Shown here: in pieces, positions 50,063 to 55,952 of the stretch | Position numbering within the stretch: the first letter of the stretch is position 1 | Layout: each line of letters begins with the position of its first letter | Source: a virus | Length of the DNA stretch: 64,000 nucleotides | Strand: one strand, 5' to 3' | Virus record (IMG/VR): IMGVR_UViG_3300045970_000382 | Span: 64,001 to 128,000 of that record | Notes under the pieces: model-generated | Told to the model about the DNA's origin: nothing | What the model saw: only the letters and a program-made list of their open reading frames with translations | The model's database searches: none | Made by a program: the position numbers and the translations under genes

Positions 50063-50797
50063 TCAGTCATCAATATCGACTACGCGATTCATTAGTATTG
50101 TATATATTTCAGGATCTAAATCATCTTTAAATAAATTACCTAACCTTTTAAATTCAGCTTCTTTAGCTGCTTTATAGGCTAGCCTAGCTTCTTCTTCTGT
50201 TTTGTAACTACCAAGGTACTTTAATTTTCCTTCAACGTTACAAGCAGCTTTGTATGGATTTGTTTTACTACCAGAAGGAGAAACTCCAATACGAAATTCA
50301 CCTCTACTAGCATCACTTTTTTCTAAAACAGTGTTTATCTGAGGTGGAACTAAGCAACAAGTTTCTGGTGAATATAGCTTGTTTCCTTTAATACGAAGAT
50401 CTTTGTCTATTTGCCAAAATAAAGCAGATCCAAACATTGATAAGTAATCAGGAGCAAAATTCTGAAAATTCCACCAACGTTCACATACAGTACAAGCACT
50501 ATAAGTAGGCCATACACCTCTAATAGTTTCATTATAACATCTTCGTAACATCTGAATCCAACAATTATAAATTCTTGGATATAATTTACAAGAATAATTT
50601 CCAACTCCAATAAATGCAATACCATAAATAATTGGATGATTTAGATTCTTAACCTGACCATTTCTTAAAGCGCCAGCATTACAAATTTTTTCAGTCCCAT
50701 CTTTAAATCTAATTTTTACATTGTTATAATCTATATATTCCATAACAGTGCAATTACCAGATTTATTTGTTTTGAATACATCACCTATTTTAATCAT
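50063..50797 (-). CDS. HNH-AP2 homing endonuclease (copy 6)
   Basis: Colinear paralog. Confidence 0.8.
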   Translation of the reverse strand: MIKIGDVFKTNKSGNCTVMEYIDYNNVKIRFKDGTEKICNAGALRNGQVKNLNHPIIYGIAFIGVGNYSCKLYPRIYNCWIQMLRRCYNETIRGVWPTYSACTVCERWWNFQNFAPDYLSMFGSALFWQIDKDLRIKGNKLYSPETCCLVPPQINTVLEKSDASRGEFRIGVSPSGSKTNPYKAACNVEGKLKYLGSYKTEEEARLAYKAAKEAEFKRLGNLFKDDLDPEIYTILMNRVVDIDD

Positions 50798-51927
50798 GCT
50801 GTCTCCTTTATTAAAGCTTTTGCCTGTGTTACTACTTTTGGTGCAAGAGTTTTACCAAGGAGTTGTATAACTTTGTCTTTGTTTTCAACTATATCTTCTA
50901 AAGTTTTTATTCCAGCAGCATCCAACTTCTTGGCTTTCACTATTCCAATTCCATCTAACGAAACTAATTCGGCTAGACCGGCTCTGACACCATGTTTTAC
51001 ACGGAGTGCAATAATAGTTAGTTCTTTAGAACTCTCCCAACCAAATAATCCATTCATCCACGTTAATGCTCCAATTATTCTATCAATATCAGATCGTAAT
51101 TGTCGTGAGTAAATATGGATTCCTTCTTGTTCAGTTAGAACATCATATAAATCTGCAGCAATAGTACTTTTAGTTATAGATTTTGATACTAGTTGAGGAA
51201 TTGTATCTAAAACAGCTTCAGAATAATTCTCAACGAATTCTATATCTTTAGCAGCTATATAACCAGCCTGCATACTTGGAGTTGTTCCAAGAGTATAGGA
51301 AATAGCCAAATCACTAGACCAGAGATTATGATTATAGATATTCATAAAATTCATATACCAATGAAAAACATCTCTTGGATAAAAATAAAGAGTAGCACTT
51401 ATTTTACCTAACGAAGTAATCTTAAACACACCAGTATCTGTAAGTGTTAACATTCTTATTTTAATAAGATCAGCTAATACTTGATCTATAAACCCATCTT
51501 CTAATTTTAACTGAATAGCTGCCAATGATCTTAAAAACCAATGTCTTAGTGTTTCCCTATTCCAAACCTCACCATTGGATATTTCAGCCAGTACATGAAA
51601 TCCTAAAATGTCACTGTTAATCAAAGTAGATATGATATTTCGTGGATTATTTATTTTATATTGCCATGAAGAAACATTATCACAGATAAAATAACAACGA
51701 CCTATATCAGACCAACCTAAACGACCACAACGTCCAGCAGCCTGCAATATATCTAATTCATCTATTTGACTAAGACCACGTGTGTTACCTACAATAATAA
51801 CATTGGTAGCACAGGTGTTGCAGTTATGTGTTAAGATTTTATTAGCAAAAAAGTTATGGTTCTTTTCTACAGATAAGTCTATATGGATATTTTCTGATTT
51901 TCGCTTCACAATAGATGTTATTTTCAT
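50794..51927 (-). CDS. Ski2/Hel308-like helicase C-terminal half, preceded by split-intein C-fragment (IntC, 35 aa)
   Basis: MKITSI...DLSVEKNHNFFANKILTHN|C, then motif VI QAAGRCGRLG and C-terminal HhH LDGIGIVKAKKL. Confidence 0.88.
   Translation of the reverse strand: MKITSIVKRKSENIHIDLSVEKNHNFFANKILTHNCNTCATNVIIVGNTRGLSQIDELDILQAAGRCGRLGWSDIGRCYFICDNVSSWQYKINNPRNIISTLINSDILGFHVLAEISNGEVWNRETLRHWFLRSLAAIQLKLEDGFIDQVLADLIKIRMLTLTDTGVFKITSLGKISATLYFYPRDVFHWYMNFMNIYNHNLWSSDLAISYTLGTTPSMQAGYIAAKDIEFVENYSEAVLDTIPQLVSKSITKSTIAADLYDVLTEQEGIHIYSRQLRSDIDRIIGALTWMNGLFGWESSKELTIIALRVKHGVRAGLAELVSLDGIGIVKAKKLDAAGIKTLEDIVENKDKVIQLLGKTLAPKVVTQAKALIKETA
51823..51927 (-). mobile_element. Split intein C-fragment
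   Basis: Intein blocks F/G ending HN, followed by Cys+1. Confidence 0.88.
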
Positions 51928-52771
51928 AATTTTTTAATATTTTTTTAATTTCAATTTGGAATTTATTAAGAACAGCTTGTGGAGAATCTTTCCTATAATT
52001 AAAAGGAATTCTTATAACATGCCATCCTAATGATTGTAAAAATAAATCTTTTCTATTATCACTTTCTATTTTTTCAGGACTTGAGTGACATATATCTGAA
52101 TCTATTTCAATAGCAATTTTAAATTCAAGAATAGCAAAATCTATACAATATCCTCTATGACATTTACCATTATTATCAGGTTCAGGATAATTAAAATCTA
52201 TTTTAAAAGGTAATTTAATAATGTTTATCCAAGAAATTATTTTCTTTTCAAATTTACTAGGCTCTTGATACATACCAAGATAATGCCAAGCTGTATGTTC
52301 ACGTTGAAGTTTTTTTGATTCTTCAGTATGTTTTTTCCCATAAAAATGATTATCTTTACCTGATTCATTTTCATTTTTTACACGTCTTGGGAATGTTGGA
52401 GTATTTTGATAATGGGCTTTCATTGTCTTGCTTATCTGTTGTTTTGTTTCATTTGTTTGTGCAGGTCTTAATGCAAAAGATGCTTTCATTTTTAATGAAA
52501 ATTCTTCTGTTTTCCAAAGTTCTTTATTTTGTAAATTACGCTCTTTAACTTTGTCAGGATTAGCTTTGCAATAGGCTTTTGAAGTTTCTCTTTTATTATC
52601 TTTCCATTTTTGACTAACTAAAGGAGCGTTAGGATATTTAACTTTGTATTCAGTTAATTTATATCCATGCGTAAAAAATAAATGTCCATTAGTTATTTGT
52701 TTACATTGTTTACCACATTCTCTACAAGAGATTGTTTCATATGTATCATTTTCAAACATTAGCTTCACCAT
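51854..52771 (-). CDS. Free-standing Vsr/DUF559-like endonuclease with Zn finger and NUMOD3
   Basis: CRECGK...HL..H; NHFYGKKHTEESK; IDFA....KIAIEID...H......D.RKD.FL...GW.VIRI. Confidence 0.8.
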   Translation of the reverse strand: MVKLMFENDTYETISCRECGKQCKQITNGHLFFTHGYKLTEYKVKYPNAPLVSQKWKDNKRETSKAYCKANPDKVKERNLQNKELWKTEEFSLKMKASFALRPAQTNETKQQISKTMKAHYQNTPTFPRRVKNENESGKDNHFYGKKHTEESKKLQREHTAWHYLGMYQEPSKFEKKIISWINIIKLPFKIDFNYPEPDNNGKCHRGYCIDFAILEFKIAIEIDSDICHSSPEKIESDNRKDLFLQSLGWHVIRIPFNYRKDSPQAVLNKFQIEIKKILKNYENNIYCEAKIRKYPYRLICRKEP

Positions 52772-52802
52772 TAGCTTACCTTAGGATTAGCTTACATTAA
52801 CA

Positions 52803-53111
52803 TTAACTAAAATCAGTGTCAAGATTAAACAAATCTTCTTCCCCTGTAAGATTTTGTGCTTCAATTATTGAAAAAGAATTATCTTTATTTTTACAATAAA
52901 AAGGATGTTTTCTATCTACAATTATTGTTTTTCCATTTTCTAATGTAATAACAAACTCATTAATAGGTCCATATTCTAAGACATTAAGAATATTATCTTG
53001 TTCTAAATATCCTTGTTCATTCCAAGATAAAATTTCATCATTGATTTTAATATCTTTAGCTAATTTTTCTGTCCCATTAGACATAGTTACTAATGTATCT
53101 TTTGATACAGA
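52803..53111 (-). mobile_element. Split intein N-fragment (102 aa)
   Basis: SVSKDTLVTMSNG.EK.AKDIKIND.ILSWN...I.LENGKTIIVDRKHPF, then stop. Confidence 0.85.
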
Positions 53112-55952
53112 ACCCCATGCCAAACCGCTGGTGGAAATTAATACTTGTAAAGATTCTTTAGTATTTTCAGCAAAATCTTCTAAAAATTGTGTTCGGGAAC
53201 TCATTTCTAAATCAGCATTATAAAATAAACAATCAATTTCTTGATCTTTAAATTTAGATTCAAGCATCCGTCCAGTATTTTTATCATGTACGAAGATTAG
53301 TGTTTTCTCATTTGGATTTTTATAATAACATTCAAGAGCTAGATTCAATTTATCTTGCTGTTGGTCAGCATATCTTAAAGATGTGTCATATTCTAATAAA
53401 TTCCATTGAATAACAGTGGGTCTCCAATTATTATTTATTACTTCTGTCGGTTTACCGTTTAGTGTTGTAAGCCAAGTCTTAAATTCAGATACATTTGGCA
53501 TAGTAGCAGATAGCATCAATATCTTAGCTGATGGTACTAACTTTGAAAATCGCATGATTCCTACTTCAAGTGCATGTCCTCTATTTGTAGTAAGAAGTGA
53601 TGATTCGTCGGTAATTATCAGCCCAATATCAAATAACCAATCTGATTTTTCAGATTTATAATTTCGTGAACGGGAGTTATGTAACATAATTCCACCTTGT
53701 CCGCCAATCCAATTTTGTATTGGGTATGAAACATTTTTAGGTTGTATTTCAAGATCATATACAATATCTTTTCTTAAAAATTCTATACTTTTAATTTTGA
53801 CAAAATGTAAATGTGGATTGAGATTGTTTCTTTGTCTTGGGTTATTTTCATTAATTCGTATATCCCATGTTAAATATTCTTTATCTTTGTATATTCTAGT
53901 ATTTTTTATTACAAAACTAAATCTTCCAACTAATAGTGTTAAATTTTGAATATCTTTAGATAGTTGAAAAGATGCTGTTCTAAAAAGATGTCTATTTTTA
54001 CTTGAGTTATCAAAAAACCCATCACCGCAAAGCATTCCATTTAAAAAGGATTCTATTTTAGATGCTTCCCAAGTAAAAACAAAATCAGGAATAGATTTTT
54101 CACGAGATAATCCACCAAACAAATGTCCTATGTATTGCCATAAAACTGAATTCACATGCAGTGTGTGTATTATTCCACCAATAGGTCTAATATCTGTTTT
54201 TGAAGTAATATTACCACCAAAAACTTTTTGTGCCCGTTCTAAAAATTGTAAGTTGTCATTTTTTTGCTCTATGGTTAATCTTGGGCCACGAACACAGCAT
54301 CCATCAGCAACAAAAAATCCCAATGCCCATGCTAGATCATTGTCAACTTCAATTTTTGCTGGAAATTCTAATTTAGAATGATATGCTTTTACTTTTTTCA
54401 TTTCATTTATATCTAATAAACCTAATCTAAATGAATTTTCAAGTAATATTAATGGGAGATAACCTCGTTTTCTCCAATCATTTATTCTTTGTGTTGTCTT
54501 ACTTAGACGTTCGTTTTCATATTTTATTGATGGGACTGCGCTAATTAAATAAAAATCATTTGAAAAAAGATTTAGTATTTTATCACTTGTGAAAAATGTT
54601 CTAGTTTTATTTACTATAGGTAAATCTAATAACAGTTCAGCAAACGGAATTATAGATTTAGTTGCTAAAGTTTCAAATCCAGTACTTATAGCAACTTGAT
54701 CTTTTTCTATATCAATATCTTTTAATATTTTAGGTATTAGTTTCTTTGTAGTTTTATCTAAGATAAATAAATTATGGCATTCTGTCATTTCAACAGATCT
54801 TCCTCCAATTAAAGATACTTTATAAATATCTTTTGGTTCTATTTTAATTCTTCCAGTTATTTCAGTCGGTAAGATTCCTTTTCCTTCATGGTAAGAAAAT
54901 ACTTCACAATCAATATTATCTTCAACTATGTTACCAATACAGTCTTTCCAAACATTGCCGTTTTTATAACAATAAAGCTCAGTTTCGTATGGATACGAGT
55001 CGGTCATTTCTGATGTACAACAAATAATATCAGCTTCGTTTAGTTCTTTAGCTTTTGTTTCTGTTAGAACAAAGTCTCCAGTTAAAATACATATTTTATA
55101 ATCTTGTCCAAATGATTTAGTCCAGTCGTTAAATTTTTCAAGAGTTAATGCTTTTAATGGTGAGACATAACAAATCTTCTTTTTGTGTACTTTTAATGTT
55201 TCCCAAACAAATAATTCAGCAGATATAGTTTTTCCTGTTGATGTAGCTGTTCCTAATACTAAGTTACAATCTTGATGCCAATAACCGTGTTTTAAAATTG
55301 TGGATTGCACACGATTGAATTGCTTAAATCCATATTTAAAATGTGGAAAATAATTATTTAAATAACAATCTTCAATCTCAACTAAATCTGTCATCATTTC
55401 TTTTGATGCCAAGTCTTTTGTTGGTTTATAAACAGGTTCAATAGAACTTTGTACCGATTTAATTGTCGAATTTAAAGATCTTAAATGATGTTCTGTTTTT
55501 GTACCACAGTTAGGAAATGCAGCACAACCCATGAATTTTACACCTGTAGCTTTAACAGTTCTTTCAACGGTATAAGAACCACATTTTTTACAGAATATAA
55601 TCTCATTAGATATTTTAATCAGATTATTTACTCGAAGAGTTATTCTTTCAAATACAGTAGTGTTACCCTCTGTTCGTAATACTTTAGGTTCCTGACATAT
55701 AATTTTATTTGCAATAGTGTCGTATAAAATGTTACGAATGGCGTCTTCACCAATATCTCTGGTTTTGCCAGTACCATCAACAGTGGTATAGATATGTATT
55801 TCAAGTGAAGGTTTAGATTTTAAAGTGGCACAGATGACTAACTCTGTTCCTCTCTTTGGAAGTTTAAATTCCCATTTTAAAAAATCGTGTTGAGGAGTAA
55901 AAAAAGTATCTGCCCAGTTTTCAAATTGATCTTTTGTTAGAGCAACAAACAT
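52803..55952 (-). CDS. Ski2/Hel308-like helicase N-terminal half with cis LAGLIDADG intein and terminal split-intein N-fragment
   Basis: FNRVQS, ATSTGKT, SPLKAL, LTGD, LIITDESSLL, LSATMPN, NWRP, ISTSGLAWG|SVSKDT; Zn ribbon CKKC..FMGC..FPNC. Confidence 0.88.
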   Translation of the reverse strand: MFVALTKDQFENWADTFFTPQHDFLKWEFKLPKRGTELVICATLKSKPSLEIHIYTTVDGTGKTRDIGEDAIRNILYDTIANKIICQEPKVLRTEGNTTVFERITLRVNNLIKISNEIIFCKKCGSYTVERTVKATGVKFMGCAAFPNCGTKTEHHLRSLNSTIKSVQSSIEPVYKPTKDLASKEMMTDLVEIEDCYLNNYFPHFKYGFKQFNRVQSTILKHGYWHQDCNLVLGTATSTGKTISAELFVWETLKVHKKKICYVSPLKALTLEKFNDWTKSFGQDYKICILTGDFVLTETKAKELNEADIICCTSEMTDSYPYETELYCYKNGNVWKDCIGNIVEDNIDCEVFSYHEGKGILPTEITGRIKIEPKDIYKVSLIGGRSVEMTECHNLFILDKTTKKLIPKILKDIDIEKDQVAISTGFETLATKSIIPFAELLLDLPIVNKTRTFFTSDKILNLFSNDFYLISAVPSIKYENERLSKTTQRINDWRKRGYLPLILLENSFRLGLLDINEMKKVKAYHSKLEFPAKIEVDNDLAWALGFFVADGCCVRGPRLTIEQKNDNLQFLERAQKVFGGNITSKTDIRPIGGIIHTLHVNSVLWQYIGHLFGGLSREKSIPDFVFTWEASKIESFLNGMLCGDGFFDNSSKNRHLFRTASFQLSKDIQNLTLLVGRFSFVIKNTRIYKDKEYLTWDIRINENNPRQRNNLNPHLHFVKIKSIEFLRKDIVYDLEIQPKNVSYPIQNWIGGQGGIMLHNSRSRNYKSEKSDWLFDIGLIITDESSLLTTNRGHALEVGIMRFSKLVPSAKILMLSATMPNVSEFKTWLTTLNGKPTEVINNNWRPTVIQWNLLEYDTSLRYADQQQDKLNLALECYYKNPNEKTLIFVHDKNTGRMLESKFKDQEIDCLFYNADLEMSSRTQFLEDFAENTKESLQVLISTSGLAWGSVSKDTLVTMSNGTEKLAKDIKINDEILSWNEQGYLEQDNILNVLEYGPINEFVITLENGKTIIVDRKHPFYCKNKDNSFSIIEAQNLTGEEDLFNLDTDFS
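53676..54998 (-). mobile_element. Cis intein with LAGLIDADG endonuclease (441 aa)
   Basis: Begins SYPYET after motif Ib TSEMTD; block B TECHNLF; LGFFVADG and FLNGMLCGDG; ends VYDLEI...GGIMLHN|S. Confidence 0.88.

Follow-up and report, generated by a model that had tools for sequence, protein, structure and literature searches.

Fractured genes, in which split inteins are accompanied by homing endonucleases, are a published type of locus (Dassa, London, Stoddard, Schueler-Furman and Pietrokovski 2009, NAR 37:2560; PMC2677866), exemplified by gp41-1, NrdJ-1 and IMPDH-1. Their hosts are gp41 helicase, IMPDH, DnaE, NrdA, NrdJ, DNA ligase and terminase; a Vsr-like endonuclease is present in 12 of the 26 fractured loci, and salt bridges between the intein halves have been described (PMC2677866). 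The prototype of the EDxHD (Vsr-like) homing endonucleases is I-Bth0305I (Taylor et al. 2011, PMC3239194). As to splicing chemistry, Ser1 inteins with Ser/Thr+1 carry an extra histidine termed 'NX' (Pasch et al. 2023, PMC10189870), and GOS TerL is given as the only known Ser1/Cys+1 intein (PMC10189870, citing Bachmann and Mootz 2015). Contiguous inteins in archaeal Ski2-like helicases (COG1204) are also on record (Novikova et al. 2016, PMC4760082). The locus considered here lies in a 64,000-nucleotide (nt) stretch of viral DNA (hereafter the window), which comprises bases 64001–128000 of the 156,223-bp IMG/VR record IMGVR_UViG_3300045970_000382, rated complete by CheckV. An original prediction, made from the letters of this DNA alone, had proposed that a Ski2/Hel308-like helicase gene is fractured here by a naturally split intein and had assigned the arrangement to the published type, which is correct. 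The data presented below indicate that the locus is very probably a fractured gene, with a cassette of split intein and free-standing Vsr-like homing endonuclease in motif V of a phage Hel308/Ski2-like helicase.

The window has a GC content of about 30%, and the fractured helicase locus lies within a long run of minus-strand genes. It is formed by three consecutive open reading frames (ORFs) on the minus strand: the N ORF (55952–52803), the endonuclease ORF (52771–51854) and the C ORF (51927–50794). The N ORF encodes 1049 amino acids (aa) with a DEAD/Helicase_C core and ends in QVLISTSGLAWG/SVSKDT...DTDFS followed by a TAA stop (here and below the slash marks the splice junction). The C ORF encodes 377 aa, opening with MKITSIVKRKSENIHIDLSVEKNHNFFANKILTHN/CNTCATNVII and continuing with the remaining Hel308/Ski2-like helicase. 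Both the 102-aa N-terminal intein half (IntN), which runs from GLAWG/SVSKDT to the stop, and the 35-aa C-terminal half (IntC), which ends THN/CNTCATNVII, were found as originally described, and the same is true of the overlap between the endonuclease ORF and the start of IntC (51927 − 51854 + 1 = 74 nt). The three ORFs occupy three different frames; the IntN frame contains more than 50 stops over the endonuclease region, and in the IntC frame a stop stands 9 nt upstream of the IntC ATG. Because the frames differ and these stops intervene, the split is genuine: the intein is not contiguous, not overprinted and not broken by a single sequencing error. A contiguous or overprinted intein, considered as a candidate, was ruled out by the stop counts in the IntN frame.

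The identity of the host gene and the point of insertion follow from profile and structure-based alignments. The N-extein is in two parts. Part 1 begins with an N-terminal, functionally unassigned domain that includes a C4 zinc ribbon of the topoisomerase type (aa 121–151), and contains the RecA1 domain from motif I (GTATSTGKT, from aa 234) through motif Ib (TSEMTD); part 2 carries motif II (DESS), motif III (SAT) and RecA2 as far as the STSGLAWG half of motif V. The C-extein starts with Cys+1 and the second half of motif V (CNTCATNVII), followed by motif VI (QAAGRCGR) and by three Hel308 domains, namely winged helix, ratchet and HhH. The profile PHROG 6819, annotated as Holliday-junction branch-migration helicase (Hjm/Hel308), is matched by the N-half at positions 128–299 and by the C-half at positions 322–638. 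In a phmmer search the C-half matched the Hel308 structures 9b15/2p6r over chain residues 332–677 (E 1e-15), beginning at Hel308 LAAGVNLPARRVIV; its Pfam match to HHH_5 is weak. In the alignments to PDB structures the C-extein starts on 'VNLPARRVIV' of Hel308, and the N-half aligns with Brr2 up to QVLVSTATLAWG/V, which places the N-extein end on Brr2 'STATLAWG/V'. The joined exteins read STSGLAWG-CNTCATNVII vs the family consensus STSTLAWG-xNLPARNVII. Since the exteins abut exactly at motif V on the Brr2 and Hel308 structures, their joining would restore this motif with Cys at +1, as had been anticipated. Motifs I, II, III, V (once spliced) and VI of superfamily 2 (SF2) are all present.

The helicase spliced in silico is 848 aa long and retains 86 of the 93 columns whose conservation across 47 relatives is 90% or more; judged by this conservation, the helicase is still constrained. 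It departs at the remaining seven columns, including motif II and two positions beside the insertion site, and is the sixth most deviant of the 48 sequences. Motif II (about 53610, minus strand; aa 781–785 of the N ORF) is DESS, and in all the 47 compared relatives it is DE[AS]H, a motif that was itself a criterion for choosing them. Motif VI contains GRCGR, compared with GRAGR in the related proteins P0002 and P0003.

The two intein halves match complementary parts of the Pfam profile PF14890 (Intein_splicing), IntN at positions 3–90 (18.2 bits, E 2e-3) and IntC at positions 122–155 (27.1 bits, E 4e-6). Their motifs were read from an alignment of the window IntN with five other split IntN and two contiguous inteins, and of the window IntC with seven other split IntC. 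Block A is SVSKDTLV with Ser1, block B is GKTIIVDRKHPF with Asp66 and His69 (D66-R-K-H69), block F is IHIDLSVEKNHNFFAN with the Asp of IDL and the His of NHNF, and block G is KILTHN/C, that is, the terminal His-Asn followed by Cys+1. All the class 1 catalytic positions are thereby filled except that of the block B Thr, which is Asp. The Ser1/Cys+1 junction and the DRKH sequence, both pointed out in the original prediction, are correct and typical of the whole split family: every split member has the His of block B, the Asp of block F and His-Asn/Cys+1 at the junction, and the block F His is kept in most (Gln in two of the eight split IntC). Asp occupies the block B Thr position in most split members and Gly in one (P0156), in contrast to Ser/Thr in the contiguous alleles at the same site. 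Position 1 is Ser in six split members and Ala in one, an allele found as two identical loci (L037 and L117). His69 is the single histidine of the window IntN, hence there is no NX His.

The halves also differ in charge. The net charge of the window IntN is −10 and that of IntC is +3; over the split family the values are −10 to −15 and +1 to +7, respectively, and the matching N-part of the contiguous alleles has a net charge of +7/+8. Naturally split inteins, DnaE among them, are known for such a segregation of acidic and basic charge.

The C-half served as the query of an exhaustive phmmer search for relatives, and the end of the N-half as that of a word-index search. The relatives fall into three classes: helicases with an empty site, helicases with contiguous Cys1 inteins at the same site, and separate halves. 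The closest empty allele, P0154 (67% identity in RecA2), reads SGLAWG/ISTFASNVII without interruption, and P0002 (58–61% identity), also empty at motif V, reads STLAWG/RNLPAVNVII. At exactly this site P0017 holds a contiguous Cys1 intein of 431 aa that includes a LAGLIDADG domain and P0048 one of 233 aa, and there are many mini-inteins. In the 81 loci of the helicase family from IMG/VR, the site is empty in 72, holds a contiguous Cys1 intein of about 430 aa in eight and is split in one (L037). At least five further N-halves (P0152, P0153, P0155, P0156, P0157) end 98–102 aa after LAWG, and at least six further C-halves (P0003, P0015, P0016, P0027, P0086, P0111) start MKI(K/T)SI...HN/CN, so the positions at which the halves start and stop are the same in at least seven independent sequences that are 40–60% identical. 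The full cassette was found again in L037, and the JGI contig L117 is identical to it. Two collections therefore contain this allele, in which the endonuclease and the ORFs of both halves are intact. Its identity to the window is 53% in IntN and 63% in IntC, and 47% and 32% in the exteins; its endonuclease (240 aa) is 37% identical to that of the window by tblastn and 47% in a MAFFT alignment. In another contig (L118:2569-3043) a member of the same split intein family (Ser1, VDKKH) has only 28 nt from the IntN stop to the IntC start, with a Shine-Dalgarno site and a TTG start and with no endonuclease gene between the halves; the contig ends soon after. The halves of this locus, being without an endonuclease, indicate that the split state persists without the nuclease. 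The empty-site relatives, the cassette found elsewhere, the independent halves and the charge complementarity together bear out the naturally split intein that had been predicted in the helicase.

The distribution of the split alleles is patchy. The RecA2 segment of the N-extein was used for a FastTree tree of 81 sequences (FastTree local supports only; rows below 40% identity left out unless already labelled split; P0156 absent, as it did not pass the BLAST coverage filter). Five changes are needed to place the five split alleles on it, as many as with shuffled labels, and at least three of the five are forced by branches with at least 95% support. The window is the sister of the empty allele P0154 (99% support) and the split P0155 pairs with the empty P0041 (99%). 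Such scatter would be expected of a mobile element; it fits gain by homing and/or repeated loss and does not fit one vertical lineage.

Several side observations touch on the same site and the same intein type. Some intein-less helicases already have Cys at +1 (LAWG/CNTSAQNAII and LAWG/CNTPARNCII, in L035/L040 and L042); these may be footprints of precise intein loss or ready recipients. P0156, available as protein only, carries in addition to its split IntN a contiguous intein in motif II (DEAH/CFPGS...LVAN/CV), with C2H2-like zinc fingers and a nuclease-like region in its interior. In L056:290-3889 the helicase is cut directly after motif I (GKT...) with no intein; a homologue of the Vsr-like endonuclease (279 aa) is found there and the N-terminal piece of the helicase is present. 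In L035:5352-8059 an HNH endonuclease gene occupies the same post-motif I point, also without an intein, and the N-terminal helicase piece was not found upstream of this HNH gene. Relatives of IntC that are 50–79% identical (VYDITVEKNHNFFAN.ILVHN/C; L001-L032) stand at the head of or inside ORFs of other phage genes, and their C-exteins start CEISLRPFQFCNL, CGYRGE, CQEITLP and others; from the diversity of these C-exteins it follows that this IntC type is common to several host genes. Outside the window, a 948-aa open frame of the same phage genome contains a further intein-like C-terminal block (L034, G000:C1:12588-12752), which is 36% identical to IntC and the extein start taken together.

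The proposed course of events is as follows. The cassette sits between the Gly and the following residue of motif V (LAWG/xNLPA). The N-precursor (1049 aa) would cis-splice its 441-aa LAGLIDADG intein (54998–53676), and the C-precursor (377 aa) would be made separately. IntN, which is acidic (−10), and IntC, which is basic (+3), are expected to associate electrostatically and to form one HINT domain, in which an N-O acyl shift at Ser1, transesterification by the Cys+1 thiol, cyclisation of Asn35 and a final S-N shift would produce the peptide bond. The product would be a helicase of about 848 aa with motif V restored as given above. The endonuclease would cut intein-less helicase alleles in co-infecting phages, and the repair would copy the whole cassette (homing). 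The coordinates of the features are collected in the table.

Table. Features of the fractured helicase locus (positions are those of the window)
Feature	Position	Strand	Basis and remarks
N-extein part 1, aa 1–318	54999..55952	(−)	Pfam DEAD 5.6e-16; Zn_ribbon_Top1 1.7e-4, below its cut-off
First intein, 441 aa, contiguous	53676..54998	(−)	Pfam Intein_splicing and LAGLIDADG_3
N-extein part 2, aa 760–947	53112..53675	(−)	phrog_6819 positions 128–299; Brr2/Hel308 alignments
IntN, 102 aa	52806..53111	(−)	PF14890 match; alignment; stop 52805–52803
Spacer between N-half stop and endonuclease start	52772..52802	(−)	31 nt, sequence read
Free-standing homing endonuclease gene, 305 aa	51854..52771	(−)	Pfam; three-homologue profile vs PDB
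IntC, 35 aa, MKITSIVKRKSENIHIDLSVEKNHNFFANKILTHN	51823..51927	(−)	PF14890 match; alignment
C-extein, 342 aa	50797..51822	(−)	phmmer vs Hel308 structures; phrog_6819; stop 50796–50794

The gene between the halves encodes a protein with a Ros/MucR-type C2H2 zinc finger (aa 12–65), a NUMOD3 motif (aa 137–157) and a Vsr-like/DUF559 nuclease domain (aa 206–272). The Pfam matches exceed the cut-offs for ROS_MUCR (28.6 bits, cut-off 25.4), NUMOD3 (27.5, cut-off 20.4) and DUF559 (26.5, cut-off 20.6), and MTES_1575 (34.1 bits) stays below its cut-off of 38.2; the zinc finger/NUMOD3/Vsr-like architecture originally proposed agrees with these matches. A profile built from the window protein and its homologues in L037 and L056 matched in the PDB the DUF559 endonuclease-like protein 3hrl (E 4e-4), the Ros zinc finger 2jsp (E 0.03) and, at profile positions 179–240, the 'Mobile intron protein' 3r3p (E 0.047), which we take to be the nuclease domain of I-Bth0305I. 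In the three-sequence alignment E175, D211, E222, D224, D238 and D242 are invariant; a His is present in all three proteins, and a gap in L037 (KLHD) shifts it so that there is no single invariant column. By its Pfam and profile matches the endonuclease, with a C-terminal nuclease domain of the PD-(D/E)xK-derived Vsr-like kind, is of the EDxHD type. Its last 24 or so codons, which overlap IntC, have no counterpart in the homologues. The word-index search with the endonuclease matched only itself, and tblastn against cultured phages gave only weak partial matches, in Vibrio and Rhizobium phages. The I-Bth0305I consensus TTxG-N6-CxAA was not seen at the junction on inspection by eye.

A number of observations weigh against a functional fractured helicase gene. 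We infer the splicing, its chemistry, and the activity and the target of the endonuclease from sequence. Each intein half alone scores below the PF14890 gathering cut-off of 35.8 bits, the sum over the two complementary profile parts being 45.3 bits. The block B Thr is replaced by Asp, and the Ala1 of the sister allele L037 would block the standard class 1 first step. The helicase has DESS for DESH, NTCA for NLPA and GRCGR for GRAGR. The IntC ORF is without a Shine-Dalgarno site, yet about half of the genes of the window are without one too. On the endonuclease side the profile match to 3r3p is weak, and the AlphaFold2 (AF2) model made from the three-sequence alignment has a predicted local distance difference test (pLDDT) score of 48.7, too poor for fold comparison.

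The Ala1 allele, together with Asp at the block B Thr position, makes it conceivable that the first step is class 2-like or modified in some other way. If Cys+1 attacked the N-terminal scissile bond directly, residue 1 would not serve as a nucleophile, and an Ala1 lineage whose ORFs and endonuclease stay intact in two collections would be accounted for, as would the constancy of Cys at +1 and the lack of a second (NX-type) His in IntN, the latter reported for GOS TerL as well. Ser1, however, is the majority state, the block F Asp and the block B His of class 1 inteins are present, and the lone Ala1 lineage could equally be a non-splicing variant, so we regard this route as unlikely. A broader formulation, to which we give a small but real chance, is that the locus represents a distinct split-intein family, defined by the canonical split site, Ser/Ala1, invariant Cys+1, the block B Asp and the lack of the NX His, in which the first step may proceed without a residue-1 nucleophile or Asp66 may activate Ser1. 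The same Ala1 allele would also suit a two-chain enzyme in which the intein halves merely hold the helicase pieces together non-covalently, as has been shown for the endonuclease-split NrdA of Aeromonas phage Aeh1; a phage enzyme that is fractured by an endonuclease and assembles without covalent ligation is on record (PMC3045599), and the L056 and L035 helicases tolerate an endonuclease cut after motif I without any intein. Mere association, however, would not require catalytic residues to be conserved, yet the window keeps Ser1, the His of block B, the Asp and His of block F, His-Asn and Cys+1, and apart from position 1 and the His of block F these are kept throughout the family; moreover, motif V would stay interrupted by a domain of about 137 residues. 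Such an enzyme is thus quite improbable.

The departures at seven conserved columns and the deviant rank of the window helicase could alternatively signify a dead gene, whose pieces decay after an endonuclease insertion broke a contiguous intein. Against this, all three ORFs and the 441-aa first intein are intact, 86 of the 93 conserved columns are retained, the boundaries of the halves recur in at least seven independent sequences that are only 40–60% identical, and the charge segregation is specific to the split alleles. A pseudogene as the main explanation was rejected on the conservation of the catalytic residues and of the helicase and on the charge pattern, and we consider it very improbable. 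Finally, an assembly or sequencing artefact, in which false stops and frameshifts would disguise a contiguous intein, had been named from the outset among the things that could undo the prediction. Nothing specific speaks for it apart from the origin of the window from a metagenome-derived virus record. There is not one in-frame stop but more than 50, a complete conserved endonuclease gene fills the gap, and the split layout is present in unrelated samples (L037 = L117, and L118); the artefact is effectively refuted. The fractured gene with a split intein and an endonuclease cassette, as set out above, therefore remains our reading of the locus.

The contiguous first intein, located in motif Ib of the same N ORF, has Ser1 and Ser+1 with no cysteine at either junction (TSEMTD/SYPYETE...GGIMLHN/SRSRN) and contains a LAGLIDADG endonuclease domain. 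The site reads TSEM.D/SRTRK in the intein-less relatives. P0002 has the same intein at this position, and P0152, P0153 and P0155 are without it.

A spacer of 31 nt separates the stop of the N-half from the start of the endonuclease gene and has a Shine-Dalgarno-like site, TAAGGT. Scans for promoters and terminators and the folding of this spacer gave nothing above shuffled controls and no stable hairpin at the window locus. Because of this, co-transcription is the simplest reading, and the three ORFs are probably co-transcribed. The sequence AAGCTAAT occurs three times at 13–15 nt spacing at about 52758–52800 (minus strand), over the N-half stop, the spacer and the first endonuclease codons; the spacer contains most of the three copies, the run reaches the endonuclease codons to about 52758, and the repetition may be due to chance. 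In L037 (2995–3075) a 15-of-16-bp inverted repeat (GACTTGGGGTTATATT / AATATAATCCCAAGTC) is found directly upstream of the endonuclease Shine-Dalgarno site AAGGAGG, which is also preceded by a promoter-like TTGACT-17-TATAAG; nothing similar is present in the window spacer. Downstream of the locus an HNH endonuclease gene (50063–50797, minus strand; phrog_953, E 9e-60) starts at an ATGA overlap with the stop of the helicase C-half and is a second selfish nuclease flanking the fractured helicase gene.

If our reading is right, the Hel308/Ski2-like helicase, at its motif V, joins the hosts of fractured genes. One and the same site is met in many stages, namely, empty, with mini- and full-length contiguous Cys1 inteins, split with an endonuclease and split without one, and this allele series may serve as a natural series for the study of how inteins become split. 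The Ser1/Cys+1 family (at least eight pairs or halves, 40–60% identical) could give orthogonal splicing reagents, a use that had been suggested for the window pair. The mature helicase would need one cis- and one trans-splicing event, which makes a possible point of post-translational control. A class 2-like step or an Asp66-activated Ser1, if true, would constitute a new variant of the catalysis, from which orthogonal tools for trans-splicing could be drawn. Current concepts are unchanged by a fractured Hel308-like helicase.

The novelty of the host stands in part. No description of a split intein in a Hel308/Ski2 host was found in full-text literature searches, so the split form is unreported in the literature searched; contiguous inteins are known in archaeal Ski2-like helicases (PMC4760082) and at this very site in phages. 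The window intein is like the archaeal contiguous inteins of COG1204 in its host family, and like the phage ones (P0017, P0048, L051-L086) in the LAWG/C site and in blocks F and G (..HN/CN.PA). Unlike the window intein, however, the contiguous ones are single-chain (about 165–430 aa), with Cys1, Ser/Thr in block B and a basic N-part.

The closest parallels remain the loci of Dassa et al. The window shares with them the reading-frame overlap at the IntC start and the Vsr-like endonuclease, and L037 shares the hairpin upstream of the endonuclease. It differs from them in its host, a Hel308/Ski2-like helicase being absent from their list, in Ser1/Cys+1 and the block B Asp, and in the second, contiguous LAGLIDADG intein in the same precursor. 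The window endonuclease resembles I-Bth0305I in having an N-terminal NUMOD-type DNA-binding region and a C-terminal Vsr-like nuclease domain, although the sequence similarity is marginal; unlike I-Bth0305I, which belongs to a group I intron and carries NUMOD2, it is free-standing between intein halves and combines a Ros/MucR-type zinc finger with NUMOD3. With GOS TerL the window intein has in common Ser1 with Cys+1 and the lack of the NX-motif histidine. GOS TerL is reportedly split in an atypical way and situated in a terminase, in contrast to the window family, whose split (102 + 35 aa) falls at the canonical site of endonuclease insertion and whose host is a helicase. The fractured-gene layout has been known since 2009, and what the present locus adds to it is modest: the host gene and the insertion site and, likewise to a modest extent, a Ser1/Cys+1 pair at the canonical split site, which is rare, the Asp in block B and a sister allele with Ala1.

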